From Escherichia phage vB_EcoM_LNA1, in the sequence record MZ311863.1: a stretch of DNA of 64,000 bases. The stretch is one strand, 5' to 3'. A program made the translations under genes and the position numbers. Within the stretch, counting starts at the first letter, position 1; every line of letters begins with the position of its first letter. This document shows positions 5,106 through 63,556 of this stretch, one piece after another. The notes under the pieces were generated by a model. The model made no database searches, was not told the origin of the DNA, and saw nothing but the letters and a program-made list of their open reading frames with translations.

Positions 5106-5657
5106 TCAACTTAGTTTTGCAAACTCTCCGTGGAGTTTAATAGCAGCTTCACAGTAAGCTTTATGGGCTTCTTCAGGGGTGTCAAACATACCAAGATGAT
5201 AGTTTTTACCTTGTAAACGTATCATTGCTCGAAACCTTTTACTTATCTTCTGTACACCTTTTGGCAACCCAGATGGGGACTCTCTTGACCGATTGCAAGA
5301 GTTTTGTGAAGCTGTACAAACCCTTAAATTCAAGTACCTGTTGTCCCAACCGTCCCCATTCTTATGGTCAACCTGTAAGGTTTTATCAGGTAGATATCCA
5401 TCCATATACAAGATAACTAAACGATTTGCTTGGTAACCCCTTCCATCAATCAGCAACTGAACTGACTTGTGTCCATCAGTATTTGTTCTGTAGTTTCCAG
5501 CCCTCTTACCTCCAAATCTAGAGTTAAAGTTTGCATTACCTTCTCTAAACTTCCAAGTAAAGACCCCTGTTTCGGGGTCGTAGTCCAATAGCTCCTTAAG
5601 ACGAATTTCTGTAATCATTTCAACACCATCAATGTACCTCATACCAGCTCTTACCAA
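5106..5657 (-). CDS. HNH homing endonuclease with AP2-like DNA-binding domain
   Basis: 183 aa; HKNGDGWDNRYLNLRVCTASQN (HNH_3-like) followed by RFRAMIRLQGKNYHLGMFDTPEEAHKAY (AP2-like); starts 29 nt inside the end of DNA polymerase exon 2. Confidence 0.7.
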   Translation of the reverse strand: MVRAGMRYIDGVEMITEIRLKELLDYDPETGVFTWKFREGNANFNSRFGGKRAGNYRTNTDGHKSVQLLIDGRGYQANRLVILYMDGYLPDKTLQVDHKNGDGWDNRYLNLRVCTASQNSCNRSRESPSGLPKGVQKISKRFRAMIRLQGKNYHLGMFDTPEEAHKAYCEAAIKLHGEFAKLS

Positions 5658-6185
5658 CCTTTGCTGTACCAGTTACAAGTGTTTCTTTCCTCAAACCTAA
5701 GTTTTTTGAAGCTTGTCCATACATCCAGTCAGCAATTGCTTTCATATCCTGTGTCATACCCTCTGGACATTCCCAACTATTTTCATCGTGATATGCCAGA
5801 AGTAACCTTGCTCCGATAGCTGGTTTTCGAGCATTCAGTTTTGTCAGGCCATCTTCACAGGCTTTTCTTGCTGCTAGGTTGATGGCCTCATTCTGAATCT
5901 GTGCTTCCGAACTCATCAGGAGGTAGTTCAGGAGTTTATGTGGAGATTTGCACCATATCCATGCTCCAGCGACCCTGATATAACCACCTTTAGCAATTGA
6001 AGAATTCTTCCCAAAAACCTCTTCCAGAGCCTTTTTAGACGCCTTAAAATCGGCTTCTAAGCTGTCAAGTAACTTCTTAATCTTCGGTAGACGCATATAG
6101 TAAGTCTGCTTAGTCAATGCACCTTCTTCTGTAGATGATGCCTTGATAGTTTTTGCAAACTTCTCATCACCTGCACCGAACAATA
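5629..6185 (-). CDS. DNA polymerase (family A) exon 2: end of motif B through motif C
   Basis: begins (L)FGAGDEK matching T7 gp5 YGAGDEK of motif B; contains LLLAYHDE motif C; ORF track start is TTG, so not an independent start. Confidence 0.7.
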
Positions 6186-6453
6186 CATCTGGTCAATACA
6201 CTCGCAAGGTGTACCAGTTCTCTTATGAACTTCTCCGCATTTCTACGGAGTGTCGGACTATATCACGTAGTAGTAATACTACCGTTGCACTTGGGAATGG
6301 TCATTAGCTTACCACCCTACTCTACTCAGTTCATACATTAAGTATGCTTTTCGATAGTCTCTGAACGTTCCTCTCAAGAGGCTTCGCTGCTGATTACCGT
6401 ATCTTCTCAGACTTAGGCTTCCAGCAATTCACAACGTTTTACATGCGCCACTG
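6186..6453 (-). ncRNA. putative ORF-less group I intron in DNA polymerase gene
   Basis: splits motif B (KNGIYA / LLFGAGDEK); 5' exon ends in U, intron ends in G; intron start cagtgGCGCAtg can pair with exon end uGCGU (U.G at splice site); contains GATATAGTCCGAC resembling the Tetrahymena-type P7 core, then hairpin CTCCGTAGAAATGCGGAG (P9-like). Confidence 0.6.
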
Positions 6454-8596
6454 ACGCATAAATGCCATTTTTGGCTTTCTTACGACCTTTTGTAATCTCG
6501 TGAAGAAGTTCCTCGTCCTGTGTCCCCCTACAACGAACAATATCTTCTTCCTTGTTCAGACCAAAGTAAATACTGTTCAGTGTGTGTGCATCAGTACCTG
6601 TGTAGACTTCGTAGAGGTCATTCTCAGCATCATAACGAAGATACTTATCAGTTTCTGGATTGAGGTACTTATCAAGATGCTTGCAATAGTATCTCCCATC
6701 ATCTTGCTTAGTAAATTCTACAAACTCTTTACCTTCAGTTACCGCTTTGGTGAAGTCTTTATCACCCATAAAGTTACACAGTAAAACAAGCTGTGCAGAG
6801 TTCTGGTCAACAGAAACAATGTTAGTACCCTCTTCACAAATCCACACTTCCCTCATAGGTGCTCCATAGACAGCAGCACCAGATGGTACGTTTACAATAC
6901 CATATTGTGTCATACGTCCAGTTGAAGTACCAAATACCATTGCACCAGCACTAAGGCGACCATCGGGACGAATCTGGTTCAACCAACCTTTTTCATCATC
7001 CTTTGAGTTCTCAATAGTTCTGCGTCGGTGCATCAAAGTATAGTACTTAGCAATCTTCTGTCCAAGCTCACCTTCAATCGTATCATAAGATGATTCAGTA
7101 AGCTTTGGTGAAGTACGGATTAAGCAAGGCTCAAGCAAATCTGTGTATTTCTTCACAGACCAGTTATGCTCAATGTACTGTACACCTTCATGTTCAACAT
7201 AGCTCAAACCACACCGCTCAACCATTTCCTGCCACTTAGGATGTTTTGTAATCATCTTTTTATTGTCTTTGAAACGACAAACTTTGACAGGGCGACCATC
7301 TGAGTCTTTCTTGTAGTTCCAGTCATCTGGAATCCAACCAACTGATTTCAAGTAATCTTTAACAACTGCTACCTGAGTCATACGAGAAACTTCGAACTCA
7401 ATTGGTGTATAAGGTGCATCAATCAAACCTGTGTAGCGACTTGACTCAAGCTCAAAGTGATTAACAACATGGCTGTTATAGTACTTCACAGTTTTAACTG
7501 TTTTTACTGGCTTCCAGTCTTTGCATTTCTTACCAATCTTTGCATTCAACTCATTACAAATTGCACGAGCATCCTTCATTGCTACAAAACCTTCCTTGTA
7601 CTCTTCACCAGTTACAGAGTTGGTTGGTGTATAGCAATTTCTCTTTTCAATGTTAAAAATCTTTGTAGTTGGCTTACCAAATGGTTTGATTTCATAAGTC
7701 TGCATCTCACCATTACGTACCTGCTGACGATACTTTGTCTTAGGATACTTGGTAATTCTCTTCAGTCCATCTGCATGACCAAATGTTTCAACATACTCAT
7801 TCCAAGCTTTTGCAAACTCTTCTCCAGTGACTTTACCTTTAGTCTTAATAGTTGGAGGAAGATGTGGTTCAACTTCTGAAGCAAGCTCATTAGTCAACTT
7901 GTCAAGTTCCTTTACATGGAACTCCATAAGCTCTTTATCAGCTTTCCAACCATTGATAGCCTGTTGACTCATCCAGAAAGATGTTTCTTTAGCTCGCATG
8001 TAGGTTTCATAAGTATCTACGCCACACTTCTTTAGCTTGAGATATTCATTATCCAGTGCGCGTTTAGTTTTGGCGTTAATACGGATATCTTCCACAACAC
8101 GAGTGAAGATTTCTGCATTCCACACACCCCAATGTTCAATCTCTGGTTTACGTACACCAACACGAGCACCCCATGCAGCCAAGCCATGAGCACCTTTATA
8201 ACCTTTTGGAGTTGGTCTATCCATCCACTGAACACGGGACTGGATAAGAGAATCCTGAAAGAAATTACTCCACGGTTTACACTTTGGATTATCAAAGTTC
8301 CATAAATCCGGTGCAATGTGATTGAAAACCCACCAGTCATAACCGAGACCGTTATGGATACAAAGACGTTTTGCCTTTAACGCAAACTCAACACCTTCAC
8401 GTAAGCCACCCTTAATGTACTTAGTGTACTTGTGACCGAGGATAGGCTCATCTGTAAAGACCCATACAGGTGGCTCTTCATCGTCAGATTTATAGTCTGC
8501 AAAGGCCATTACGTGAACTTTAGTGAACTCAAGGAGTAAACCATCAGTTTCTGTATCACCAACCAAATGTAAGTTTTTAAAATCTACGTTTTCCAT
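6454..8596 (-). CDS. DNA polymerase (family A) exon 1: 3'-5' exonuclease domain through first half of motif B
   Basis: VGDTETDGL exo motif near N-terminus; VSVDQNSAQL motif A-like; ends ...RKKAKNGIYA before in-frame stop in intron. Confidence 0.75.
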
Positions 8597-21544: not shown

Positions 21545-21743
21545 ACGCCTTTGGGAAGGTTTGGTTGTTGATGCACCAGCTATTGTGATTGGTATGCTTA
21601 TTGTTAACCTATTTACTGACTTTGAACAAGGTTCATTGTTTGGAGCCATGTTACTATGGGTTATCTTTGAAATATTAGAGATACAGTTAGGTATCACTGA
21701 AAAACTAAGAGAACTCTTTGCGAAGTTTTCTAAAAAGATTTAA
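21537..21743 (+). CDS. small hydrophobic protein
   Basis: 68-aa ORF with hydrophobic stretch. Confidence 0.3.
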   Translation: MLKRLWEGLVVDAPAIVIGMLIVNLFTDFEQGSLFGAMLLWVIFEILEIQLGITEKLRELFAKFSKKI

Positions 21744-21750
21744 AATGAAA

Positions 21751-21772
21751 GGGTCTCTTCGGAGACCTTTTT
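21751..21772 (+). terminator. intrinsic terminator
   Basis: ggtctcTTCGgagacc hairpin plus ttttt. Confidence 0.55.
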
Positions 21773-21791
21773 AGCATGTAAAGGGGCAATA

Positions 21792-22988
21792 ATGAACAAA
21801 GTACAGATTATTAAAAAGAATGGCTCACTTGAAGAACCTGATATCAAAAAAGTTTTAGCAGCAGTCACTAAGTCAGCTAATAGGGTTGGGTATAAAGAAC
21901 TACCACCAGATGTTACCCAAGCTCTTGAGTCAGCATTTATGAGGATTCTGGTAAAATCCACTAAGCAGAATAATTTACTCATTTCAGTAAATGATATTCA
22001 CAGTATTGTTGAGGGTGCTTTGGCAGAAGTCAATCACGAGATTTATGAGTCTTACTCAACATATAGAAATTACCGTAAAGAAGTTGCTCAAAATTGGGAT
22101 GAACTCTACCAGAAGACCAAAGATACACTCTTCTTAGGTGACAGAGAGAATGCTAACTTTGACAGCAGTTTAATTTCTACAAAAGGCTCAATTATTCGTG
22201 GTTACCTGACTAAAGAAATCTTTAAACAGTACCATTTAACACCAGAGGAACTTGAAGCCATTGAAAAAGGGTTTATCTATATCCATGATTTAAGAGACCT
22301 GATTTTTGGTGGTATCAACTGTTGCCTGTTTGACATTGGCAAAGTGCTGAAAGGTGGCTTTGAAATGTCTGGCATTGAATACTGTGAACCGAAGTCTGTA
22401 CTGTCAGCCTTACAGGTTATTGGTGATGTAGTTCTTTCAGCAACTGCACAGCAATTTGGTGGCTTTACTTTAGCAGAGATTGATAAGGTACTTGTACCGT
22501 ATGCTAAAAAATCTTTAGTGTACCACTCAGAGAAAGCTGAAGAGTACGGAATCCCTAAAGAGCAACACTATAATTACGTAATGGAGCAATTACAGAATGA
22601 GTTAACACAAGGTTTCCAATCTCTTGAAATGAAACTTAACACTGTTCCTTGCAGTCGCGGTGATTTTGCATTTACTACTCTGACATTTGGTCTGTTGGAA
22701 CCAGATATGCACAATGAAGATAACCGTCTTCAGTTTATGATTGCCAATACAATCCTTAACGTAAGGATGAACGGGCAAGGAAAAAGCAAAAAACCTGTTG
22801 TGTTCCCTAAACTTGTTTATATCTATGAAGAAACGAGACATAAGCTTGATGTATGCCAAGCAAGGTTGTTTGAAAAAGCTATTGAGTGTTGCTCTAAAGC
22901 GATGTATCCAGATTTCTTAAGTGTGTCTGGTCATGGTGCTGTAGCAGAGGCTTTTGAGCGTTCTGGTAAGGTAATTTCACCGATGGGT
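21792..22988 (+). CDS. nrdD: anaerobic ribonucleotide reductase exon 1
   Basis: N-terminal ATP-cone (MNKVQIIKKNGSLEE...); ends ...VISPMG before in-frame TAA; the conserved PMGCR(A/S)FL block is split here. Confidence 0.75.
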
Positions 22989-23730
22989 TAACAAGCTCTA
23001 TAGCTCATCTAAAACGTGCCTAAACAGGGAAACTCTACAGATGTAGATAATCCTGTGCTAAATGATGTAAGATGTAAGAAACTATATAACATAGGAGTAT
23101 TACATGCCAAATTATCATGTTACTGAAGACGGAAGAGTCTTTAGAGAAAATGGTGTAGAGCTTACACAGTGGAAATCCAACACTGGGTATATGAAAGTAA
23201 AGTTTTACGGTAAGAAGAATCGTGACATGTATGTCCATAGGTTAGTTGCTGAGAAATATGTACCTAACCCAAACAATCTTCCAATTGTAAAACACAAAGA
23301 TGATAACAAACTGAACAACCATGCTTCTAACTTAGAATGGGGAACTCATTCTGAGAATGTTAAAGAAGGTTATGAGAACGGTTGCTACAAGTTTTGTAAG
23401 CGTTCATATGCTGTGAAGGCTACACACAAAGTGACAAAAGAAGTTATTGCTGCCAAGTCAATACGAGAGTTATCCAACATACTCGGATATAATCGCAAGA
23501 CTATCTCTTCAATATTGAAGGGTGTAAAAGAGCATAATAACTTTGAACATGAATTTGAATACATCTAAATGCCGAACGACTAACCGTGATGAATGTAGCG
23601 GTGTAGGGTCAAGCGACTCGAAATGGTACGCTACTTAGAAATAAGTAGAAGATATAGTCTGGACTTACTGGTGACAGTAAGCAGCTTGGATAAAGCGGGG
23701 TAAGCGTAGCGAACTTACCTGAACAACAAG
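22989..23730 (+). mobile_element. putative group I intron with HNH homing endonuclease ORF, inserted in nrdD
   Basis: exon 1 ends in U (ggt), intron ends in G (acaag); joining gives in-frame ...SPMG|CRAFLSPYHNEDGEEFYVGRANIGAVSLNLP; contains AGATATAGTCTGGAC (P7-like core) at about 23650. Confidence 0.7.
23104..23568 (+). CDS. HNH homing endonuclease (intron-encoded)
   Basis: 154 aa; HKDDNKLNNHASNLEWGTHSEN HNH-like motif. Confidence 0.6.
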   Translation: MPNYHVTEDGRVFRENGVELTQWKSNTGYMKVKFYGKKNRDMYVHRLVAEKYVPNPNNLPIVKHKDDNKLNNHASNLEWGTHSENVKEGYENGCYKFCKRSYAVKATHKVTKEVIAAKSIRELSNILGYNRKTISSILKGVKEHNNFEHEFEYI

Positions 23731-24678
23731 TGTAGAGCGTTTTTATCACCATACCATAACGAAGATGGTGAAGAGTTTTATGTAGGTCGTGCTAACATTG
23801 GTGCTGTATCTTTGAACTTACCAATGATTTACCAGTATTCTAAAGAGAATGGCTTAGATTTCTGGAAAGAGCTTGATAAGTACCTAGAAATGATTCGCAG
23901 CTTCCACAAGAAACGTTACGAAATGATTGCTAATATGCCAGCAAGTTCTAACCCTCTTGCATTCACACAAGGTGGCCTGTACAAAGGGAATAAGAAACCT
24001 ACTGACAAGGTTGGCTGGGATATCGTGAAGTCCTTCACAGCTTCTTTTGGGGTTACTGCGCTTGATGAGCTATCTGTTCTTGCTGAAGGTAAACGACTTC
24101 ATGAAGTTGGAAGCTGTAGTTTTGCATATGATGTTCTGGAATATATCAACATGAAGACTGAAGAGTTTAAAAATGAAGATGGCTTCTTATATGCAGTCTA
24201 TGGCACTCCAGCAGAATCACTTTGTGGAACTCAGCTAAAACAGTTCAGAGATATGTTTGGCGTTATCAAAGGCGTTTCTGACAAGGAATACTTTACAAAC
24301 AGTTTCCATATGAATGTTGCAGCAGACATTACACCATTTGAGAAGCAGGACTTAGAAGAACCTTTCTTCCATATCTGTAGAGGCGGCAGAATCCAGTATG
24401 TAAGAGTGGCTAATCCAGAAAACTTATCAGCACTTAAGAGTTGTATTACAAGAGGGATGTTGAAAGGTTTCTATCAGGGACTTAACTTTGACTTAGCAAT
24501 CTGTGAACATTGTGGTAACAGACCAAAGGCTGATGTTGAAGAATGTGATGTTTGCCATTCACATGATATTTCTGTGATTAACAGGGTGTGCGGATATCTG
24601 GGATGGACTAAGATTAAAGGTGAATCCCGAATGAACGATGCAAAAATCGCTGAGATTCGTGACAGAATTTCTATGTAA
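23731..24678 (+). CDS. nrdD: anaerobic ribonucleotide reductase exon 2
   Basis: C-terminal Zn-ribbon CEHCG...CDVCH and glycyl-radical motif RVCGYLG; ORF track start at 23812 is TTG within the continuous frame. Confidence 0.75.
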   Translation, partial: CRAFLSPYHNEDGEEFYVGRANIGAVSLNLPMIYQYSKENGLDFWKELDKYLEMIRSFHKKRYEMIANMPASSNPLAFTQGGLYKGNKKPTDKVGWDIVKSFTASFGVTALDELSVLAEGKRLHEVGSCSFAYDVLEYINMKTEEFKNEDGFLYAVYGTPAESLCGTQLKQFRDMFGVIKGVSDKEYFTNSFHMNVAADITPFEKQDLEEPFFHICRGGRIQYVRVANPENLSALKSCITRGMLKGFYQGLNFDLAICEHCGNRPKADVEECDVCHSHDISVINRVCGYLGWTKIKGESRMNDAKIAEIRDRISM

Positions 24679-24689
24679 AACTTGACAAG

Positions 24690-24965
24690 GTGATGCGGGT
24701 CTTGATAGGCTTGCATCACCTTTTTATTTGGAGTTACATTATGGACTTGTGGCTTTATGTAGCAGTTTGTGGGATTGTATGTCTGATAATCTTATTTATT
24801 CTTGGAGTAATGCGATTTAGAGATATTATACAGTCAGATTTTTTGCCTGAGTTTGCCATGATAGTTGGGGTTATTACCCTTTGTGTCTTGGCGGTGTTCT
24901 ATTCATACAAAACTGTGATATGGATGGAGGCAAACAATTGTGTAAAAAACTCATCAGCACCGTGA
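24690..24965 (+). CDS. small membrane protein (two predicted TM helices)
   Basis: 91 aa, hydrophobic segments LWLYVAVCGIVCLIILFILGVM and FAMIVGVITLCVLAVFY. Confidence 0.35.
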   Translation: MMRVLIGLHHLFIWSYIMDLWLYVAVCGIVCLIILFILGVMRFRDIIQSDFLPEFAMIVGVITLCVLAVFYSYKTVIWMEANNCVKNSSAP

Positions 24966-43901: not shown

Positions 43902-43944
43902 AAATTTTTGTTGACACTGGTTTCTAGATAGATTAAATTACACC

Positions 43945-43999
43945 TCAACGGGAGGGATGACCTCCCCACTAAATAAAGTCCTAAACTGGAGATTCTAAA
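43945..43999 (+). promoter_or_regulatory. leader cassette type A (copy 3)
   Basis: TCAACGGGAGGGATGACCTCCCCACTAAATAAAGTCCTAAACTGGAGATTCTAAAATG. Confidence 0.5.
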
Positions 44000-44203
44000 A
44001 TGGCTATTATTAACGGTTTAAACATTGAAACTACTCACATCAAAGACATCAAAGTTGGCGATATAGTCCTTTTTCACGGCGTAGAGAAAACTGTTACTGC
44101 AAAAGATATCAAAGAGGATTCATTCATGGGCCGGACCCTCTTCGGTGAGTCCTATTGCTTAGGTTACCTTGCAGTTTTAAAAGTTGTCAAAGGTAATCGT
44201 TAA
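44000..44203 (+). CDS. small hypothetical protein (cassette gene)
   Basis: 67 aa. Confidence 0.4.
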   Translation: MAIINGLNIETTHIKDIKVGDIVLFHGVEKTVTAKDIKEDSFMGRTLFGESYCLGYLAVLKVVKGNR

Positions 44204-44288
44204 AGTACTTTACAGGGGGCTTATAGTTCGATAAAGTAAGCCCCAGATAAAGTACTTTACCACTAAATCCTAAACTGGAGATTCTAAA
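44204..44288 (+). promoter_or_regulatory. leader cassette type B (copy 4)
   Basis: identical hairpin GGGGGCTTATAGTTCGATAAAGTAAGCCCC. Confidence 0.5.
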
Positions 44289-58385: not shown

Positions 58386-58462
58386 CTCTGTTTAGCTCAG
58401 CTTGGTAGAGCGTTCCGTTTGGGGCGGTAAGGCCGGAGGTTCAAGTCCTCCAACAGAGACCA
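58386..58462 (+). tRNA. tRNA-Pro (UGG)
   Basis: manual fold: acceptor ctctgtt/aacagag (C1-G72), D-arm gctcagcttggtagagc, anticodon loop tttgggg, T-arm ggagg-ttcaagt-cctcc, CCA encoded. Confidence 0.65.
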
Positions 58463-58469
58463 AATTAAT

Positions 58470-58547
58470 GTTCCAGTAGACAAAATGGTATAGTCACCAC
58501 TCTTTCAAAGTGGATATTTGAGGGTTCAAATCCCTTCTGGAACGCCA
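58470..58547 (+). tRNA. tRNA-Glu (UUC)
   Basis: acceptor gttccag/ctggaac, anticodon arm ccact-ctttcaa-agtgg, T-loop ttcaaat. Confidence 0.6.
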
Positions 58548-58552
58548 GTTTT

Positions 58553-58630
58553 GACAGAAGACCAATTACAGCAAACTTAATCTTATTCATCTGAAGGTAA
58601 ATCGGACAAAGAAGAGATTTGGTCTGGTCA
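58553..58630 (+). repeat. inter-tRNA repeated element (copy a)
   Basis: gACAGAAGACCaaTTACAGCAA ... tttGGTCTGGtca; same 5' and 3' motifs recur in 3 further units. Confidence 0.5.
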
Positions 58631-58638
58631 TTAAGAAT

Positions 58639-58715
58639 TGCGGGTATAGAGAAAGGGCGTCTCACATGTCTCATTAGCATGGTATCGGCAGGTTCGACTC
58701 CTGCACCCGCCTCCA
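58639..58715 (+). tRNA. tRNA with CAU anticodon (Met or Ile2-type)
   Basis: D-arm gaga-aagggcg-tctc, anticodon arm catgt-ctcatta-gcatg, T-arm gcagg-ttcgact-cctgc; acceptor pairing imperfect, exact ends uncertain. Confidence 0.5.
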
Positions 58716-58720
58716 AATTT

Positions 58721-58790
58721 TACAGAAGACCGTTTACAGCAATATTTATTAAATTTTTAGCGGAAAAATTGAAAGATACGGTCTGGTAAT
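58721..58790 (+). repeat. inter-tRNA repeated element (copy b)
   Basis: tACAGAAGACCgtTTACAGCAA ... acGGTCTGGtaat. Confidence 0.5.
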
Positions 58791-58799
58791 ACTAAATAT

Positions 58800-58876
58800 G
58801 GTTAGGAAGCACATAAGGTATGTGCGGTCGCCTGTTAAGCGAATGGCACAGGGTTCGAATCCCTGACTAACCGCCA
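58800..58876 (+). tRNA. tRNA-Asn (GUU)
   Basis: anticodon loop ctgttaa, T-arm caggg-ttcgaat-ccctg, acceptor ggttagg/actaacc, CCA encoded. Confidence 0.65.
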
Positions 58877-58885
58877 AATTTAAAT

Positions 58886-58973
58886 GTGTCGTTATCCCGT
58901 AGATGGTAGCGGTGGGGACTGTAAATCCCTTGTCATTGAGACTCGGTAGGTTCGACTCCTACACGGCACACCA
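58886..58973 (+). tRNA. tRNA-Tyr (GUA), long variable arm
   Basis: 88 nt; anticodon arm gggga-ctgtaaa-tccct, T-arm gtagg-ttcgact-cctac, acceptor gtgtcgt/acggcac. Confidence 0.6.
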
Positions 58974-58994
58974 ATTTTGATAGGGCTACTTAGC

Positions 58995-59030
58995 CCCTCC
59001 CTTAAAGGGTTCTTACGAGTATCCTTTAAA
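58995..59030 (+). repeat. palindromic element AAGGGTTCTTACGAG..TCCTT (copy 1)
   Basis: cccttaaagggttcttacgagtatcctttaaagg; second copy at 62443. Confidence 0.5.
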
Positions 59031-59032
59031 GG

Positions 59033-59112
59033 AGCAGAAGACCAAATACAGCAAGTTACTTAAAATTTCAAGCCAATTTAATTTTGAAAAATTTAAAACT
59101 TGGTCTGGCTCA
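59033..59112 (+). repeat. inter-tRNA repeated element (copy c)
   Basis: gagCAGAAGACCaaaTACAGCAA ... ttGGTCTGGctc. Confidence 0.5.
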
Positions 59113-59120
59113 ACAAATTT

Positions 59121-59258
59121 ACAGAAGACCGTTTACAGCAAAACTTAAACAATCTATTTCTCGGTAAAGAAAAGGCGAAGATTCGACTCCTTCACTCGGC
59201 AGATGTCGAGTTGGTGTAATGGTAGCACTTAAGATGATAAACAACGGTCTGGTAATTA
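59121..59258 (+). repeat. inter-tRNA repeated element (copy d) containing tRNA-like fragments
   Basis: ACAGAAGACCgtTTACAGCAA ... T-arm-like gaagattcgactcctt and hairpin actcggcagatgtcgagt ... acGGTCTGGtaat. Confidence 0.45.
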
Positions 59259-59401
59259 CCTTTGTAGGTGAGCTATTAAGCTTACCTGTGAGTATGCGAC
59301 CACAAAGGGTGAAAGGGTAAATTCTAGATTTAAACCCAAAAAGGCACATCACTACAGACCTTAAGCAAGTCTGGGTAGCTTATCTACAAAGATAATTTAA
59401 T

Positions 59402-59477
59402 GGAAGTGTAGCAGAATGGTGATGCGGCAGACTTTTAATCTGACAGGCGATGGGTTCGATTCCCTCCACTTCTACCA
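59402..59477 (+). tRNA. tRNA-Lys (UUU)
   Basis: anticodon loop cttttaa, acceptor ggaagtg/cacttct, T-loop ttcgatt, CCA encoded. Confidence 0.6.
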
Positions 59478-59481
59478 ATAT

Positions 59482-59558
59482 GGTTCAGTCGCAGATAAGG
59501 TAATGCAAGGGTCTCATAAACCCTATGAATGTGGGTTCGATTCCCATCTGAACATCCA
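59482..59558 (+). tRNA. initiator tRNA-fMet (CAU)
   Basis: anticodon arm agGGt-ctcataa-aCCct with three consecutive G-C pairs, and 1-72 mismatch (G.A): both are bacterial initiator hallmarks. Confidence 0.6.
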
Positions 59559-59560
59559 AT

Positions 59561-59636
59561 GCTGTGAAAGCACATATGGATGTGCATTCGGCTGATAACC
59601 GAAAGGCAGAAGGTTCGAATCCTTCTCACAGTACCA
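59561..59636 (+). tRNA. tRNA-Ile (GAU)
   Basis: anticodon arm ttcgg-ctgataa-ccgaa, T-arm gaagg-ttcgaat-ccttc, D-arm gcac/gtgc. Confidence 0.65.
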
Positions 59637-59651
59637 ATTTCAATAAAGTTG

Positions 59652-59680
59652 TTGACATTGAGATGTGACTACTTTATACT
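59652..59680 (+). promoter_or_regulatory. strong sigma70-consensus promoter
   Basis: TTGACA-17 nt-TATACT; followed by about 200 nt with no ORF before next tRNA. Confidence 0.55.
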
Positions 59681-59884
59681 AACCTTAGTTTTCGTTGCGT
59701 AGCGTCTATTTTGCAAATTTAAAATAAATGCAAACGACAATGTTTTTCTGGCAGTAGCTTAATAGGCTAAACACCAGTGAGGTCTTCCAATCCCTCATCA
59801 AAGAATTTGGCGTACTCGCCCACGGTATGGTTAATAAGGTGGGCATCTTTAAGGGCTTTCTAAGAGAGTCTTTAAAGATAATTA

Positions 59885-59966
59885 CGGGGCGTATCTCAGC
59901 TGTCTTCTAAACAGCCGTTAACCGAGTAAGTGGAGTATGCGGGTTCGAGTCCTGCCGCCTCGACCA
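59885..59966 (+). tRNA. atypical tRNA-like gene (possible Arg UCU-type hairpin)
   Basis: good 7-bp acceptor cggggcg/cgcctcg and T-arm gcggg-ttcgagt-cctgc with CCA, but internal arms non-canonical; hairpin gctgt-cttctaa-acagc looks like an anticodon arm. Confidence 0.35.
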
Positions 59967-60115
59967 ATTTAGTTAGCAGATTACTTAGACGACCTAAGCG
60001 GGTCTTCCTGTAGGGAGGTGGTCTGTATCTCATGTTTTCCAGAACATGTAAATAATCTGAGAAGGGGCTTTACAGTGTTGAGATAATACGGTAAGCTTCG
60101 AATTATAGTTTTAAT

Positions 60116-60186
60116 AGGGGTGAGCTATGGCAGCAATAGAGTCTCCAAAATTCTTGATTAGAGTTCGAATCTCTCCACCCCTGCCA
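60116..60186 (+). tRNA. tRNA-Trp (CCA)
   Basis: starts aggggtg, anticodon loop ctccaaa, ends caccccctgcca; closely parallels E. coli tRNA-Trp ends. Confidence 0.7.
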
Positions 60187-60200
60187 GAACAGGTGCTTGT

Positions 60201-60605
60201 ATGAAACTTTGTAGAAAATGTTCTCAAGAAAAGCCTTTAAGCTGCTTTCATAAAAGGGGTAATGGCTATCAGTCTGCTTGCAAAGATTGTAAAGCTAAGT
60301 ACTCAGCAAAGAGATACAAAGAAGACCCTACTTATAAAGCAAAAAGAAAAGTTAGGGCAAAATATGACAAAAAGAGGAACAGAGAGTTCCTTAGTAGATA
60401 TAAAAAGTTTTGCAAATGCAGGATGTGTGGCGAATCTGAGCCAGTAGCTTTGGATTTTCATCACTTAGACCCTAAAGAGAAAGATTTTGCTCCAAGCAAT
60501 CTTAAAACTTACTCTAGAGGCACTATTAAGCGTGAAGTCCGTAAGTGTGTTGTGCTTTGTTCAAACTGTCATAGGAAAGTTCATGCAGGACTGTTAAGTA
60601 TTTAA
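60201..60605 (+). CDS. HNH endonuclease inside tRNA cluster
   Basis: 134 aa; Zn-ribbon CRKC...CKDC and DFHHLDP...CSNCHRKVH HNH motif. Confidence 0.6.
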   Translation: MKLCRKCSQEKPLSCFHKRGNGYQSACKDCKAKYSAKRYKEDPTYKAKRKVRAKYDKKRNREFLSRYKKFCKCRMCGESEPVALDFHHLDPKEKDFAPSNLKTYSRGTIKREVRKCVVLCSNCHRKVHAGLLSI

Positions 60606-60618
60606 CAGTCTTATTAGG

Positions 60619-60706
60619 GGTAGGTAGCGGCTAATGGTAGCCAAACTGTCTTGAAAACAGTTGCCACTGTAGAGATACGGTGAGGGTTCGACTCCTTTAC
60701 TTACCG
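60619..60706 (+). tRNA. tRNA-Ser (UGA), long variable arm
   Basis: 88 nt; anticodon arm actgt-cttgaaa-acagt; long variable arm; T-loop ttcgact; CCA not encoded. Confidence 0.6.
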
Positions 60707-60962
60707 CCTAATAAGATTTTAAAGCCAAGCTTCATTCGGATGTCGCTTTGGTATCCCTCGTGTTGTCTAACACATTGATAAAACACCTAGTAGGTGTCAC
60801 GGAGAAGAGATAATATCAAGCTCTCCAAAGGTTCTAGTCGCCGGATTAAACAAGACTATGCAAAGACCTTTTTAGGTCTTTTTAGAGGGCTTCTAAGGTT
60901 ATTACAGCTTGTTGTGGAACCTTGTTGCTTAGGTTCTTAGAAGTTCTCTAAAAAGATTTAAT

Positions 60963-61040
60963 GGGAGATTGATGGTAATTGGTAAACCTATCTCGCTTAG
61001 AACGAGATGTTTGAGGGTTCGAATCCCTTGTCTCCTACCA
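60963..61040 (+). tRNA. tRNA with UAG anticodon (Leu-type) but short variable arm
   Basis: anticodon arm tctcg-cttagaa-cgaga; T-arm gaggg-ttcgaat-ccctt; discriminator A; class I length. Confidence 0.5.
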
Positions 61041-61047
61041 AATTAAT

Positions 61048-61123
61048 GCAGGTGTAGCAAAATGGTTATGCGGCTGACTCTTAATCAGTAAGACGATGGG
61101 TTCGAATCCCTCCACCTGTACCA
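61048..61123 (+). tRNA. tRNA-Lys (CUU)
   Basis: paralogue of 59402 tRNA; anticodon loop ctcttaa. Confidence 0.55.
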
Positions 61124-61129
61124 AACATT

Positions 61130-61205
61130 GGGGATGTAGTTTACATGGTTAAAACATAAGTTTTGCAAACTTAAGTACAGGGTTCAATTCCCTGCTTCTC
61201 CACCA
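61130..61205 (+). tRNA. tRNA-Ala (UGC)
   Basis: G3.U70 wobble in acceptor (Ala identity element), anticodon loop ttttgcaa, ends ctccacca. Confidence 0.7.
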
Positions 61206-61211
61206 ATTAGT

Positions 61212-61286
61212 GCATCCATAGTTTAAACGGGAAAATTACAGTCTTCCAAACTGAGGTTGAGGGTTCGATTCCCTCTGGATGCTCCA
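61212..61286 (+). tRNA. tRNA-Gly (UCC)
   Basis: acceptor gcatcca/tggatgc, anticodon loop cttccaa, discriminator U. Confidence 0.65.
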
Positions 61287-61292
61287 AATAAT

Positions 61293-61369
61293 GCTGCTTT
61301 CGTATAATTGGCTATTACACATCCCTTGTAAGGATGGAAATGCAGGTTCGAGTCCTGTGAGCAGCACCA
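61293..61369 (+). tRNA. tRNA-Thr (UGU)
   Basis: anticodon arm catcc-cttgtaa-ggatg, T-arm gcagg-ttcgagt-cctgt. Confidence 0.65.
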
Positions 61370-61371
61370 AT

Positions 61372-61462
61372 TCAGAGGTCAAGTGAAAGACCGCTGGTGT
61401 CAACTGAAGACCGTAACAAATTCCACGGAGTTGAGTTAGCGGCACAACTTCAGACCTCTTTC
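61372..61462 (+). ncRNA. candidate structured non-tRNA element
   Basis: terminal inverted repeat cagaggtc...gacctct; contains ctGAAGACCGTaACAaA related to the inter-tRNA repeat motif. Confidence 0.3.
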
Positions 61463-61464
61463 AT

Positions 61465-61539
61465 ACTCGCTTAGTTTATATGGTAAAATATCACCCTTAC
61501 AAGATGAAGAAAAAGGTTCAAGTCCTTTAGTGAGTACCA
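61465..61539 (+). tRNA. tRNA-Val (UAC)
   Basis: anticodon loop cttacaa, T-arm aaagg-ttcaagt-ccttt, acceptor actcgct/agtgagt. Confidence 0.55.
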
Positions 61540-61540
61540 T

Positions 61541-61618
61541 GTTCCAGTATCCCAATTGGCAGAGGATGCAAGCTCAAACCTTGTATTAGTGACGGTTCGA
61601 ATCCGTCTTGGAACACCA
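61541..61618 (+). tRNA. tRNA with CAA anticodon (Leu-type) but short variable arm
   Basis: anticodon arm gcaag-ctcaaac-cttgt; acceptor gttccag/ttggaac shared with the Glu tRNA at 58470; discriminator A. Confidence 0.45.
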
Positions 61619-61637
61619 ATTTTAAGAGGCTATTTAG

Positions 61638-62195
61638 ATGAGATATTTGAAGTATGCTTCATGGATTTTCCTAGCTTTACTAGAACCATTTGCAGCAGCC
61701 CTAGCAGTCATCTTAGCACCTTTCGTAGTTCCATTCTACAGTGAGAAGAAAGGGCATCTACCTTTTGGATTCAGATGGATGGAGACCTATGACAACCCGA
61801 TTGATGGTGATGAAGGCCACGTTAAAAGATGGGCTAAGATTAGAAAGATTGGTAAGCTGGGTGTCTACATGCAGAGAGTTGGATGGCTCTGGAGAAACAA
61901 AGCTTATAACTTCTCTTACCATGTATTAGGAAGAGATGTAAAAGGTGTGACTAAGTGGAAAGGTAATATCAACGTAAGTTCTGACCCTGAAGATAATCAG
62001 ACAGGTTATCTCCTAATGTGGAACAGTAATGCTTGGGGATTATTCGCTTTTATCCCATCAATTAAAGTCTTTGGTAAGCAGTTTTACTGGAGAATTTATG
62101 TTGGATGGAAACTAAAAAGCGTTGTCCCAGAAGAGAGAGCATTCTCAAGGGAAAGAGTTATGTTGGCATTCTTTATTCATCCACTGAGAAAGTAA
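61638..62195 (+). CDS. hypothetical membrane protein
   Basis: 185 aa; N-terminal hydrophobic helix WIFLALLEPFAAALAVILAPFVVPF; embedded in tRNA cluster. Confidence 0.4.
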   Translation: MRYLKYASWIFLALLEPFAAALAVILAPFVVPFYSEKKGHLPFGFRWMETYDNPIDGDEGHVKRWAKIRKIGKLGVYMQRVGWLWRNKAYNFSYHVLGRDVKGVTKWKGNINVSSDPEDNQTGYLLMWNSNAWGLFAFIPSIKVFGKQFYWRIYVGWKLKSVVPEERAFSRERVMLAFFIHPLRK

Positions 62196-62203
62196 AGATT
62201 TAA

Positions 62204-62279
62204 AGGGGATTAGTTTACAAGGTTAAAACCTCGGTCTTTGAAATCGAAGAAGTTGGTTCAATTCCAACATCCCCCGCCA
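62204..62279 (+). tRNA. tRNA-Gln (UUG)
   Basis: anticodon arm tcggt-ctttgaa-atcga, T-arm gttgg-ttcaatt-ccaac. Confidence 0.55.
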
Positions 62280-62281
62280 AT

Positions 62282-62360
62282 GCTCCATTACTCCAATTGG
62301 CAGAGAGGCCAGACTTAAAATCTGTGTTATGTATCGGTTCGAATCCGATATGGAGTACCA
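62282..62360 (+). tRNA. tRNA with UAA anticodon (Leu-type) but short variable arm
   Basis: anticodon loop cttaaaa, T-arm atcgg-ttcgaat-ccgat, discriminator A. Confidence 0.45.
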
Positions 62361-62365
62361 ATTTT

Positions 62366-62441
62366 AGCGGTATAGCATAACTGGCAATGCAGCAGTCTCT
62401 GAAGCTGTCCTATTAAGGTTCAAATCCTTATGCCGCTGCCA
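62366..62441 (+). tRNA. tRNA-Gln (CUG)
   Basis: anticodon arm gcagt-ctctgaa-gctgt, T-arm taagg-ttcaaat-cctta. Confidence 0.55.
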
Positions 62442-62442
62442 C

Positions 62443-62470
62443 TTCTAAGGGTTCTTACGAGAGTCCTTAA
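62443..62470 (+). repeat. palindromic element AAGGGTTCTTACGAG..TCCTT (copy 2)
   Basis: cttctaagggttcttacgagagtccttaaatg. Confidence 0.5.
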
Positions 62471-62471
62471 A

Positions 62472-62547
62472 TGTGGCCTTATCATAAATGGTAATGACCC
62501 ATGCTGTGAACATGGTCTATACGGGTTCAAATCCCGTAGGTCACCCC
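62472..62547 (+). tRNA. tRNA-His (GUG)
   Basis: anticodon arm ccatg-ctgtgaa-catgg, discriminator C, T-arm acggg-ttcaaat-cccgt; no encoded G-1 seen. Confidence 0.6.
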
Positions 62548-62552
62548 AATTT

Positions 62553-62629
62553 ATAGTCCAAGTAGCTTATATGGTTAAAGCGCGTGTCTGAAAAACATGA
62601 GAAGAGGGTTCAAATCCCACTGGACTACC
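62553..62629 (+). tRNA. tRNA-Phe (GAA)
   Basis: anticodon arm cgtgt-ctgaaaa-acatg, acceptor tagtcca/tggacta; 3' end assignment uncertain. Confidence 0.55.
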
Positions 62630-62646
62630 AATTTCAAAGGTGCTTA

Positions 62647-63381
62647 ATGAAAGAGATGACAGAACAAGGTAAGGAGATTTTTAATCTCTTAAAAACCGGT
62701 AAAGGGTTTTCTAACCCGCTTATTACTGGTGCAGCAGTTCTCGGTGGAACCGTAGCTGCCTCTACATCACTTGTAAGCTCTATTAGCTCTGTAACAGACC
62801 CTACAATAAAAGATAAGCTTGTTGCTGCTGGGCTTACAACAGTCCTTCTAAACAGCTTTACAACAAGCCTTACAAGCACTACAGCAACTACTAAGACCCT
62901 AACAGACTACGGTCAAAAGTCTATTGATGAGTTTTCATCACGTATGCAGGTAGCAAAGGGATACTCCAATGTTATGGGTGCAGCAGGGGAACAAGTTGGT
63001 TGTACACCATTCAGTGGTATTATGGGTGTTGCTACAGAGTATGGTCAAAAAGCTATTGGCATGATGAACAGTACACTAGATAGTGTTAATGGTGTGTTAA
63101 GTGACTTGCAAGACGCTATTGATGAGGGTCTTGATACTGTTTCTGATTTAGCTAATCAAGCTGTTAGTAAAATTAATGAAGGCATTTCAAAGATTACAGC
63201 TTATGCAGATGAAGTTGTGCAGATGATTGAAGAAGAAGCTGCCCTTATTGCAGAGTACCTTAAAACGAATATTAATGGGTTCTTAGCAGGTATCTTACCA
63301 GACTGGTTTGATGATGCCTGTAAAACTGGTGTAATTGACACTATTGCAACACCAGAAATGAAGAGCGCATTACAGAAATAA
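62647..63381 (+). CDS. hypothetical Ser/Thr-rich protein
   Basis: start moved to internal Met (MKEMTEQG) because the 5' part of the ORF overlaps tRNA-Phe. Confidence 0.4.
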   Translation: MKEMTEQGKEIFNLLKTGKGFSNPLITGAAVLGGTVAASTSLVSSISSVTDPTIKDKLVAAGLTTVLLNSFTTSLTSTTATTKTLTDYGQKSIDEFSSRMQVAKGYSNVMGAAGEQVGCTPFSGIMGVATEYGQKAIGMMNSTLDSVNGVLSDLQDAIDEGLDTVSDLANQAVSKINEGISKITAYADEVVQMIEEEAALIAEYLKTNINGFLAGILPDWFDDACKTGVIDTIATPEMKSALQK

Positions 63382-63382
63382 T

Positions 63383-63475
63383 GGAAGATTAACCCTAAAA
63401 GGTAAGGGAGCAGTTTGCTAAACTGCCAGTAGCTGAGAAATCGGTGTACCAGTTCAAGTCTGGTATCTTCCTCCA
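63383..63475 (+). tRNA. tRNA-Ser (GCU), long variable arm
   Basis: 93 nt; anticodon arm gcagt-ttgctaa-actgc, 21-nt variable arm, T-arm accag-ttcaagt-ctggt. Confidence 0.65.
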
Positions 63476-63480
63476 ATTTT

Positions 63481-63556
63481 GAATCCGTGACAGAAATGGA
63501 TATGTGCCTGTCTGCAAAACAGGTTTATAAGGGTTCAAGCCCCTTCGGATTCTCCA
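63481..63556 (+). tRNA. tRNA-Cys (GCA)
   Basis: anticodon arm cctgt-ctgcaaa-acagg, discriminator U, acceptor gaatccg/cggattc. Confidence 0.65.

Follow-up and report, generated by a model that had tools for sequence, protein, structure and literature searches.

The nrdD gene of Escherichia phage vB_EcoM_LNA1 is very probably interrupted between the codons for Gly399 and Cys400 by a mobile phage group I intron of the IA2 type. The window analysed here is a 64,000-nt stretch of record MZ311863.1, and the original prediction, made from its letters, had placed nrdD in two pieces around a 742-nt insert. This layout was confirmed with every coordinate correct, and the locus comprises the following features:

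21792-22988, plus strand: nrdD exon 1, 399 codons, with the ATP-cone and the N-terminal half of class III ribonucleotide reductase (RNR), ending ...SPMG (from the listing of open reading frames (ORFs) and Pfam).
22989-23730, plus strand: group I intron (IA2-like), 742 nt, with an in-frame UAA stop at its start and a terminal G (omega-G) at 23730 (from its absence in Felix O1 and CL1, Rfam and covariation).
23104-23568, plus strand: intron ORF for a 154-aa HNH homing endonuclease of the I-HmuI type, in the P6 loop, with an AGGAG ribosome binding site at 23093-23097.
23731-24678, plus strand: nrdD exon 2, 315 codons and stop, beginning at the catalytic-cysteine codon (CRAFLS...) and including the glycyl-radical domain.
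23733-23778, plus strand: intron-linked exon 2 patch, set apart from intron-less alleles by 10 substitutions in the opening 48 nt of exon 2.
24687-24722, plus strand: terminator-like hairpin 3' of the nrdD stop codon.

The ORF that contains exon 1 (21792-22991) ends ...GKVISPMG and then TAA, its final sense codon being GGT (22986-22988), which matches the predicted end ...VISPMG with last codon ggt. U22988 precedes the insert, and G23730 ends it, as had also been predicted. Exon 2 opens TGT AGA GCG TTT (CRAF) at 23731 and closes with a stop codon at 24676-24678. In Pfam, exon 1 matches ATP-cone (3.8e-12) and positions 1-250 of the NRDD profile (E 4e-42), and exon 2 takes up the same profile at positions 264-560 (E 2.7e-64) and adds Gly_radical. 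The two pieces are thus one gene. Joined, they give a full-length NrdD that has both the finger-loop Cys and, at its C terminus, the glycyl-radical domain; its Pfam matches are ATP-cone, NRDD and Gly_radical. The spliced product of 714 aa aligns with T4 NrdD (PDB 1H78) over residues 20-590 (E 1.5e-78) with no gap at the junction. Here the conserved PMGCR(A/S)FL block is restored, as the original prediction had it, in an alignment reading ...VSPMGCRSFLS..., where the first Cys of exon 2 falls on the Cys of the T4 motif SPMGCRSFL. The insertion site is equivalent to T4 NrdD G289/C290, and Cys290 is the thiyl-radical cysteine of T4 NrdD. No terminator-like hairpin comparable in strength to the one after the stop codon was found between the two exons. 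Class I nrdA and nrdB are also encoded near nrdD in the same phage.

Comparison with the intron-less nrdD of related phages, suggested along with the original prediction, showed these genes to be contiguous at exactly the insertion point. The intron-less Felix O1 and CL1 read ...CCGATGGGT directly followed by TGCAGAGC... without a gap, which fixes the insertion site to a single base. ATGGGT followed by TGYMGAGC is uninterrupted in these two phages and in five further relatives.

The insert is a complete group IA2-type ribozyme, with P1, P10, P3-P9, P7.1/P7.2, P9.1/P9.2 and a terminal G. Its parts are:

22983-23008, plus strand: P1, in which exon AUGGGU (22983-22988) pairs with guide GCUCAU (23003-23008); read from the sequence.
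22996-23002, plus strand: P10 guide CUCUAUA, adjoining the P1 guide and forming 7 bp with UGUAGAG (23731-23737), where exon 2 opens; read from the sequence.
23015-23058, plus strand: 5' half of the core, with the P3 5' strand (23015-23020), P4 (23024-28/23052-56), P5 (23034-38/23043-47) and the P6 5' strand (23057-58).
23064-23565, plus strand: P6a stem, GAUGU (23064-68) with ACAUC (23561-65), closing the loop that holds the endonuclease gene.
23571-23659, plus strand: 3' half of the core, with the P6 3' strand (23571-72) and the P7 5' strand GACUA (23578-82); from Rfam, covariation and the minimum-free-energy fold.
23583-87 with 23598-602, plus strand: P7.1, covarying or conserved.
23606-10 with 23615-19, plus strand: P7.2, covarying or conserved.
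23625-30, plus strand: P3 3' strand GGUACG.
23631-37 with 23642-48, plus strand: P8.
23655-59, plus strand: J8/7 and P7 3' strand UAGUC.
23664-23730, plus strand: 3' region of the intron, with P9 (23664-70/23675-81), P9.1 (23684-87/23693-96), P9.2 (23699-704/23714-19) and a 3' tail ending in G 23730; covariation helices 13-15.

Covariation was analysed in seven sequences (the window, REP8, RPN213, phi92, ECGD1, F95 and T4). Across these, 94.5% of pair cells were paired, and P3, P4, P5, P6, P6a, P7 and P8, which include the P3/P7 pseudoknot, were paired in 100%. Double (compensatory) changes affected 31 of the 75 pairs, compared with 2-6 in slid controls, and none of 500 shuffles reached the observed value. 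All five P6a pairs were changed on both sides across homologues. In the 5' half of the core, which gave a partial Rfam match to model positions 60-139, helices 3-6 were 100% paired and compensatory changes were present. In P1, U22988 wobble-pairs with G23003 at the 5' splice site, and six of six pairs were retained in 7/7 homologues; the G preceding the 3' splice site was likewise invariant (7/7 sequences). Conservation of P10 was lower in distant homologues (66.7% of cells paired), and this helix was recovered independently in the minimum-free-energy fold, which alone gives P10, P3-P6a, P7.1, P7.2, P8, P9, P9.1 and P9.2 (z = -2.8). The P7-like core predicted near 23650 was located as AGATATAGTCTGGAC at 23650-23664. 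P7.1 and P7.2, lying between P7 and the P3 3' strand, define subgroup IA in the Michel-Westhof classification. Between P1 and P3, no P2 hairpin was recognisable, the only separator being the 6 nt CUAAAA (23009-23014). P2 is usual in IA2 introns, and a 6-nt P1-P3 spacing is unusual there. However, the T4 nrdD intron has an equally short P1-P3 junction, indicating that the missing P2 is a trait of the lineage and no bar to group I membership.

Searches with the Rfam group I model RF00028 (gathering cut-off 50 bits), also suggested in the original prediction, gave a divided answer. The window copy scored below the cut-off, with 38.3 bits (E 4.6e-8, local search) and a separate 17.6-bit P4-P6 fragment, because the 500-nt insertion in the P6 loop, with the endonuclease ORF, splits the model match. 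In contrast, the naturally ORF-deleted introns of REP8 and RPN213, which are 97-98% identical to the window in the core, scored 55.4 and 60.4 bits, both above the cut-off. At the gathering threshold, a search of the whole window against Rfam returned only an intron in the polymerase gene (6233-6516, minus strand) and missed the one in nrdD. The two introns do share the core motif GAUAUAGUC, as had been noticed, but this is part of the Rfam group I consensus and shows only that both are phage-type group I introns. The GATATAGTC core occurs three times in the window compared with 0.45 expected by chance; copy 3, at 44060, was considered as a third intron and rejected as a chance match, as it is intergenic and has no group I signal. 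Overall, the group I-like character first proposed for the insert is supported by a complete and covarying fold, guide pairings with both exons, precise absence in relatives and ORF-less derivatives above the RF00028 cut-off.

From this structure we infer that the nrdD intron is spliced. Exon 1, intron and exon 2 would be transcribed as one RNA, in which the ribozyme then folds and its guide 5'-CUCUAUA-GCUCAU-3' (22996-23008) aligns the end of exon 1 (P1) beside the start of exon 2 (P10). Free guanosine would attack after U22988, and the released exon 1 would in turn attack after G23730. The expected product is an mRNA for the 714-aa NrdD in which the conserved PMGCRAFL loop is restored. The predicted spliced RNA is 742 nt shorter, with ...CCGAUGGGU joined to UGUAGAGCG..., and the predicted junction peptide is ...VISPMGCRAFLSPYHNEDGEEFYVGR... 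(VISPMGCR/AFLSPYHNEDGEEFYVGR).

A former group I intron that now splices inefficiently, leaving nrdD a pseudogene or a gene of low-level function in intron-carrying phages, would fit the missing P2 and the structural nature of the case for splicing; anaerobic RNR is also probably dispensable in the laboratory because the phage has the class I genes nrdA/nrdB. Nonetheless, we consider such decay very unlikely. No damage is seen in any core helix, in the U·G pair, in the terminal G or in the J8/7-P7 consensus, and the compensatory changes indicate selection for pairing. Moreover, both exons are open, full-length and more than 90% conserved across the 94 intron-carrying genomes, and the spliced product aligns end to end with T4 NrdD.

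Even less probable, and in our view barely credible, is that an endonuclease gene has split nrdD into halves that are made as separate polypeptides and come together as an active enzyme. Most GenBank records would suit this arrangement, as they list two separate nrdD CDSs with the HNH gene between them and leave the intron unannotated, and one paper goes no further than calling nrdD a 'split gene' that a homing endonuclease interrupts (PMC4837284). There is also a precedent in Aeromonas phage Aeh1, where another phage ribonucleotide reductase gene is interrupted by an HNH endonuclease gene, mobE, to give NrdA-a and NrdA-b (PMC3653736). However, a ribozyme is lacking in Aeh1, and each half there is translated on its own, whereas the ribozyme in nrdD is complete and exon 2 has no start codon. 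In the exon 2 frame, in-frame TAA and TAG stand 10 and 8 codons upstream, no ATG, GTG or TTG lies upstream of the Cys codon, and the earliest start is a TTG at 23812, 27 codons into the exon; a separate product would thus lack the catalytic Cys and 26 more conserved residues. On either side of the ORF, ∼277 non-coding nt make up a ribozyme that is conserved and covarying and that a free-standing endonuclease would not need, this ribozyme is kept in phages that have deleted the ORF, and the P1 and P10 pairings are exact at the junctions. An intein or other protein-level insertion, for which conserved catalytic sites of ribonucleotide reductases are also targets (PMC3653736), is refuted by the in-frame TAA at the first intron codon, further stop codons in the exon frame, the separate frame context of the ORF, which has a ribosome binding site to itself, and Pfam matches to HNH_3 only, with no Hint or intein domains.

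The HNH endonuclease predicted at 23104-23568 was verified by a Pfam HNH_3 match of 40.2 bits (cut-off 24.8; E 2.6e-10). It resembles I-HmuI, an HNH nicking enzyme from the DNA polymerase intron of Bacillus phage SPO1 (PDB 1U3E; E 1.1e-9, residues 3-145 aligned with 12-163). The similarity is full-length, extending through the residues of the HNH motif to the DNA-binding part at the C terminus, and the alignment keeps the H of HKD, NN, the N of NL and ENV. Both ORFs are encoded in a phage group I intron, but host gene and target differ. It is 39% identical (E 2e-33) to the HNH ORF at the same intron position in Vibrio phage F95. A hairpin hiding the endonuclease ribosome binding site, as known from the T4 intron ORFs, was sought in the fold of 23058-23135, which was no better than shuffles (z = -0.6). 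A promoter like those of T4 intron ORFs was not detected in a scan of 21600-24800, which is uninformative, sigma-70-like sites being fewer than in shuffles.

Downstream of the intron, the exon 2 patch holds 10 of the 16 differences private to the window (P about 7e-11). Four differences in it are fixed between five intron-carrying and six intron-less Felixounaviruses, compared with none in the 60 nt upstream. The patch is probably a tract of co-conversion, a target of the endonuclease that has diverged, or both. Phage introns offer an established precedent for co-conversion and for nicking by the HNH enzymes that they encode (PMC2988022). During mixed infection, the I-HmuI-like enzyme would nick or cut intron-less nrdD close to the point of insertion and probably towards exon 2, the putative target and cleavage position being suggested solely by the place of the diverged patch. 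Recombinational repair would then give the recipient a copy of the intron with the adjoining ∼50 nt of exon 2, that is, homing with co-conversion. On the strength of homology and the population pattern, we infer both cleavage by the endonuclease and mobility of the intron.

The nrdD intron is carried in 94 phage records, 60 of which keep the full endonuclease gene, leaving ∼34 in which the intron is without the ORF or has it deleted; at least 86 records have no intron. The ORF was deleted at least twice independently: REP8 has an in-frame deletion leaving MPNNFEYEFGYI*, RPN213 a separate one, both inside the P6a-closed loop, and SPJ41 also has the ORF-deleted form of the same intron. Intron with ORF, ORF-deleted intron and empty site are three states that a homing element typically shows in a population. 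The window itself is from a Felixounavirus and is 97% identical to phage Tribble. Other Felixounaviruses (for example JohannRWettstein (MZ501086), Alf5, UAB_Phi87 and Tribble) are 93-97% identical over the whole locus and are alike in site, ribozyme and HNH ORF. In JohannRWettstein, nrdD is annotated as a single joined CDS with the endonuclease inside. The element is ordinary, being widespread in sequenced Felixounaviruses, with the spliced gene annotated in at least one record. In the searchable literature on Felix O1-like phages, the intron is described only as a 'split gene' or within an untargeted ncRNA count, such as the 'two introns' from an ncRNA scan in the SPJ41 genome paper (PMC9951933), and we found no experimental or transcript evidence of splicing for any Felixounavirus.

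The same site is occupied in phages unrelated to Felixounavirus at the genome level. In phi92 and ECGD1 (Justusliebigvirus) and in Vibrio phage F95, an intron with a homologous ribozyme (66-71% identity) interrupts nrdD at an identical ..MG/CR.. site. As in the window, P6 of the F95 intron contains an HNH ORF, whereas phi92 and ECGD1 have no ORF; the records of the latter two annotate a spliced nrdD CDS ('spliced variant'). The parallel originally drawn with the T4 nrdD (sunY) IA2 intron holds for the ribozyme core, which is homologous, and for the different endonuclease family, but insertion site and ORF loop differ. Both introns sit in the same host gene; their cores align at 67% identity, the GCUCAU guide is identical, and they share the P7.1/P7.2 and P9.2 modules, with many compensatory differences. 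In contrast, the T4 intron follows ...QAYE (about residue 180), leaving PMGCRSFL intact in T4 exon 2, and the Felixounavirus site lies ∼110 codons further downstream. The T4 ORF encodes the GIY-YIG enzyme I-TevII and is located downstream of P9, between the P9.1 strands, whereas the Felixounavirus HNH ORF is in the P6 loop. A tentative reading, to which we give less than even chances, is that the Felixounavirus/phi92/F95 and T4 nrdD introns are one ribozyme lineage at two nrdD sites that moved ectopically and acquired its endonuclease genes independently. Both sites follow the hexamer AUGRGU required by guide GCUCAU, although this hexamer is expected about once by chance per 2.1-kb gene and the match alone proves nothing. 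If the reading is true, the ribozyme reached a guide-compatible ectopic site by reverse splicing or illegitimate homing, and unrelated endonuclease genes colonised it independently: in T4 a GIY-YIG gene between the P9.1 strands, in Felixounavirus an HNH gene in P6. It would then be a natural example of separately evolving ribozyme and endonuclease modules.

The understanding of group I introns is unchanged by the nrdD intron, and its main value is for annotation: of roughly 94 public genomes, most list two 'nrdD' genes and a stray endonuclease, where the correct annotation is one spliced nrdD and an intron. This affects gene counts, pangenome clustering and phylogenies of Felixounavirus. A local recombination hotspot, marked by the exon 2 patch that accompanies the intron, can itself mislead phylogenies. 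As it exists with an endonuclease-bearing intron, with two independently ORF-deleted introns and with an empty site, the locus offers a natural series for the life cycle of a homing element in phages that are therapeutic candidates.

The nrdD gene of the window is in two pieces, and the 742-nt insert that separates them (22989-23730) is a group I ribozyme carrying an endonuclease ORF. The original prediction had proposed such an intron, and the ORF listing and our reading of the sequence confirmed all of its coordinates. The first ORF (21792..22991) closes with ...GKVISPMG followed by TAA, and the frame restarts at 23731 with TGT AGA GCG TTT (CRAF...) and runs to a stop codon at 24676-24678; the insert is preceded by U and its last base is G. 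Both pieces form one gene: Pfam NRDD profile positions 1-250 fall on exon 1 and 264-560 on exon 2, and the joined exons encode a 714-aa protein that aligns with T4 NrdD (PDB 1H78, E 1.5e-78) straight across VSPMGCRSFLS. Comparison with intron-less relatives showed an uninterrupted junction in Felix O1, CL1, adrianh, JK55, GLBO_sp7, ULIM8 and Mooglevirus KPS64, which read ...CCGATGGGT followed directly by TGYMGAGC.... This places the insert precisely between GGT (22986-88) and TGT (23731-33), which in the alignment corresponds to G289 and C290 of T4 NrdD. As Cys290 is the finger-loop thiyl-radical cysteine of T4 NrdD, the intron sits at the catalytic centre, where introns and inteins are commonly found. 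Directly 3' of the nrdD stop codon is a terminator-like hairpin of 16 bp and then a T-run (24687-24722, plus strand).

At the curated Rfam threshold, only the intron in the polymerase gene of the window (6233-6516, minus strand) was reported, and not the nrdD intron. In E-value mode, the group I intron family RF00028 was found in the nrdD insert (23501-23681; 38.3 bits, E 4.6e-8 in a 901-nt search), which recovers the proposed intron class at a score under the curated 50-bit cut-off. Because the ORF breaks the match, a second fragment (23024-23121, 17.6 bits) covers the model's P4-P6 part. ORF-deleted copies of the same intron in phages REP8 (316-nt insert) and RPN213 (292-nt insert), with cores 97-98% identical, scored 55.4 and 60.4 bits, both above the cut-off, and intron-less CL1 and Felix O1 gave zero RF00028 signal in the same search. 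The core motif AGATATAGTCTGGAC was present at 23650-23664, and the following fold was read from the sequence.

Structural elements of the nrdD intron
P1: AUGGGU 22983-88 with GCUCAU 23003-08; U22988·G23003 wobble at the 5' splice site
P10: CUCUAUA 22996-23002 with UGUAGAG 23731-37; adjoins the P1 guide
P3: 23015-20 with 23625-30
P4: 23024-28 with 23052-56
P5: 23034-38 with 23043-47
P6: 23057-58 with 23571-72
P6a: 23064-68 with 23561-65; closes the loop containing the ORF
P7: 23578-82 with 23655-59; pseudoknot with P3
P7.1: 23583-87 with 23598-602
P7.2: 23606-10 with 23615-19
P8: 23631-37 with 23642-48
P9: 23664-70 with 23675-81
P9.1: 23684-87 with 23693-96
P9.2: 23699-704 with 23714-19
Terminal G of the intron: 23730

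Folding by energy alone, with the ORF removed, returned all listed helices including P10, except P1 and the P7 pseudoknot (z = -2.8). We then aligned seven ORF-less cores (window, REP8, RPN213, phi92, ECGD1, Vibrio phage F95 and T4 nrdD). Standard pairs occupied 94.5% of 507 cells compared with 33-42% when partners were slid by 1-3 columns, a percentage that is favoured over the slid versions as the structure was drawn from one aligned sequence. Double-change counts are free of that bias, and both sides had changed in 31 of 75 pairs (2-6 in the slid controls). The covariation score was 0.425, against 0.05-0.07 in the slid controls, and the observed values were reached by 0 of 500 shuffles. Compensatory changes occurred in each of P3, P4, P5, P6a, P7.1, P8, P9, P9.1 and P9.2, and P1 and P7 were invariant across the alignment.

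A decayed intron that no longer splices is unlikely, because all core elements are intact and, in 94 genomes, the exons have stayed open and conserved. Most annotations of the locus imply instead that the nrdD halves are separate, as in the gene-in-pieces model of Aeh1 nrdA/mobE (PMC3653736). This reading fails, as the ribozyme around the ORF is conserved and covarying and is kept where the ORF is lost. In addition, in-frame TAA and TAG codons lie 10 and 8 codons upstream of exon 2, and its first start codon is TTG at 23812, so that a product made separately would be without the catalytic Cys and 26 further residues. An intein is ruled out by a stop codon at the first intron position.

The predicted HNH ORF (23104-23568, 154 aa) is located in the P6 loop of the group I intron, its final codons overlapping P6a, with an AGGAG ribosome binding site 6 nt upstream of the ATG. 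Its product matched Pfam HNH_3 (40.2 bits; cut-off 24.8), with a weak NUMOD1 signal besides, and aligned over nearly its whole length with I-HmuI (1U3E, E 1.1e-9), an HNH nicking enzyme from the SPO1 polymerase intron, with conserved HNH motif residues. Vibrio phage F95 has an intron ORF at the same position that is 39% identical to that of the window (E 2e-33).

Across the phage collection, the 3' ribozyme half was present at ≥80% coverage in 94 records, the full endonuclease gene in 60 and, at megablast sensitivity, the uninterrupted junction in at least 86. A spliced-junction query was covered to ≥80% by 225 records, ∼130 of which appear intron-less. The ORF deletions in REP8 and RPN213 are independent, with different breakpoint pairs that both lie inside the P6 loop.

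REP8 intron: comparison sequence L002, 577-892; in-frame ORF deletion with the 12-codon remnant MPNNFEYEFGYI and stop
RPN213 intron: comparison sequence L003, 577-868; deletion appears to join the short similar sequences ..ATGTAAGA.. and ..GGTGTAAAAGA..

Three stages are to be expected if the element homes, and all are represented: the intron with its endonuclease, the intron lacking it, and the empty site.

The exon sequence beside the intron was also distinctive. The window differs from both CL1 and Felix O1 at 16 positions (1.2 kb compared), 10 of which fall within the initial 48 nt of exon 2 (binomial P about 7e-11). These 10 substitutions, two of them non-synonymous (L to H, N to D), form a dense patch, specific to intron-carrying alleles, directly 3' of the insertion site (23733-23778, plus strand). 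In a 12-phage alignment, fixed differences separated five intron-carrying from six intron-less Felixounaviruses at +12, +33, +39 and +48, with zero in the 60 nt upstream of the insertion site. Outside the patch, exon 2 hardly differs from Felix O1, and exon 1 hardly differs from CL1, indicating that nrdD is a recombinational mosaic around the intron. Flanking exon sequence can in principle be co-converted during homing (PMC2988022), and such a patch is what co-conversion of the donor exon would leave. Its position suggests that the putative endonuclease acts on the exon 2 side, and the patch may reduce how well the endonuclease targets the intron-carrying allele. P10 is improved by one of its changes, TGC to TGT.

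A second split gene in the window encodes the family A DNA polymerase (5106-8596, minus strand).

6413-8596, minus strand: ORF, polymerase exon 1
6233-6516, minus strand: ORF-less group I intron (RF00028, 61.5 bits)
5629-6183, minus strand: ORF, polymerase exon 2 (Pfam DNA_pol_A, C-terminal part)
5106-5657, minus strand: free-standing endonuclease ORF (HNH_3 + AP2), overlapping the 3' end of the polymerase gene

At this locus, the endonuclease encoded beside the intron could act on its behalf in trans. The group I core nonamer GATATAGTC occurs a third time in the window as an exact copy (44060-44068, plus strand; intergenic gap 43902-44288); this copy was considered as a further intron and rejected as a chance match, as an Rfam E-value search gave no group I signal.

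The 2.9-kb nrdD region shares 97% identity with Escherichia phages vB_Eco_Tribble and Alf5, and 92-96% with many Felixounaviruses of Salmonella and Escherichia; 357 phage records in the collection match it, 92 of them over at least 80% of the query. Together with nrdB, a glutaredoxin gene and nrdG around the locus and 23 clustered tRNA genes (58386-63553, plus strand; Rfam calls), as Felix O1-like phages typically have, this identity fits a Felix O1-like genome. Felixounavirus-like nrdD (88-94% identity) also occurs in MG065664 (Campylobacter phage A132) and GU169904 (Staphylococcus phage SA1), probably because these records are mislabelled or mixed assemblies, and not through a true host range.

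The proposed parallel with the T4 nrdD intron, with another endonuclease family, was borne out. The T4 intron (105 bits on RF00028) is 67% identical, shares the P7.1/P7.2/P9.2 modules and shows many differences that are compensatory, and it clearly appears to be of the same ribozyme lineage. Both introns have the guide GCUCAU (T4, L007 5840-5870, minus strand; window, 22983-23008). The 5' exon ends are AUGAGU in T4 and AUGGGU in the window, and the nrdD sites are about 110 codons apart: the T4 intron follows ...QAYE near residue 180, leaving PMGCRSFL whole in T4 exon 2. The T4 ORF lies downstream of P9 and encodes the GIY-YIG enzyme I-TevII, in contrast to HNH here. Homologous introns occupy the MG/CR site in phi92 and ECGD1, without ORF and annotated 'spliced variant', and in F95, with an HNH ORF in P6.

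The element is already in public records, sometimes correctly annotated: the BASEL phage JohannRWettstein record (annotation method, PMC8594841) gives nrdD as one joined CDS that encloses the endonuclease. For SPJ41, an ncRNA scan is published with 'two introns' (PMC9951933). Two papers on the locus speak of a gene that a homing endonuclease has split (PMC4837284) or of genes with endonuclease insertions, and neither names an intron. Our literature search found no paper analysing the nrdD intron or testing its splicing.

Overall, the finding is real and its original interpretation correct, and among mobile introns of phages the element is an ordinary case of the best-known class. Only three points are mildly interesting: its placement exactly at the catalytic cysteine codon; the clean series of three population states, with a probable co-conversion footprint; and the relation to the T4 nrdD intron, in which the guide is the same and the site, endonuclease family and ORF location are different, a hint that ribozyme and endonuclease evolve as modules.
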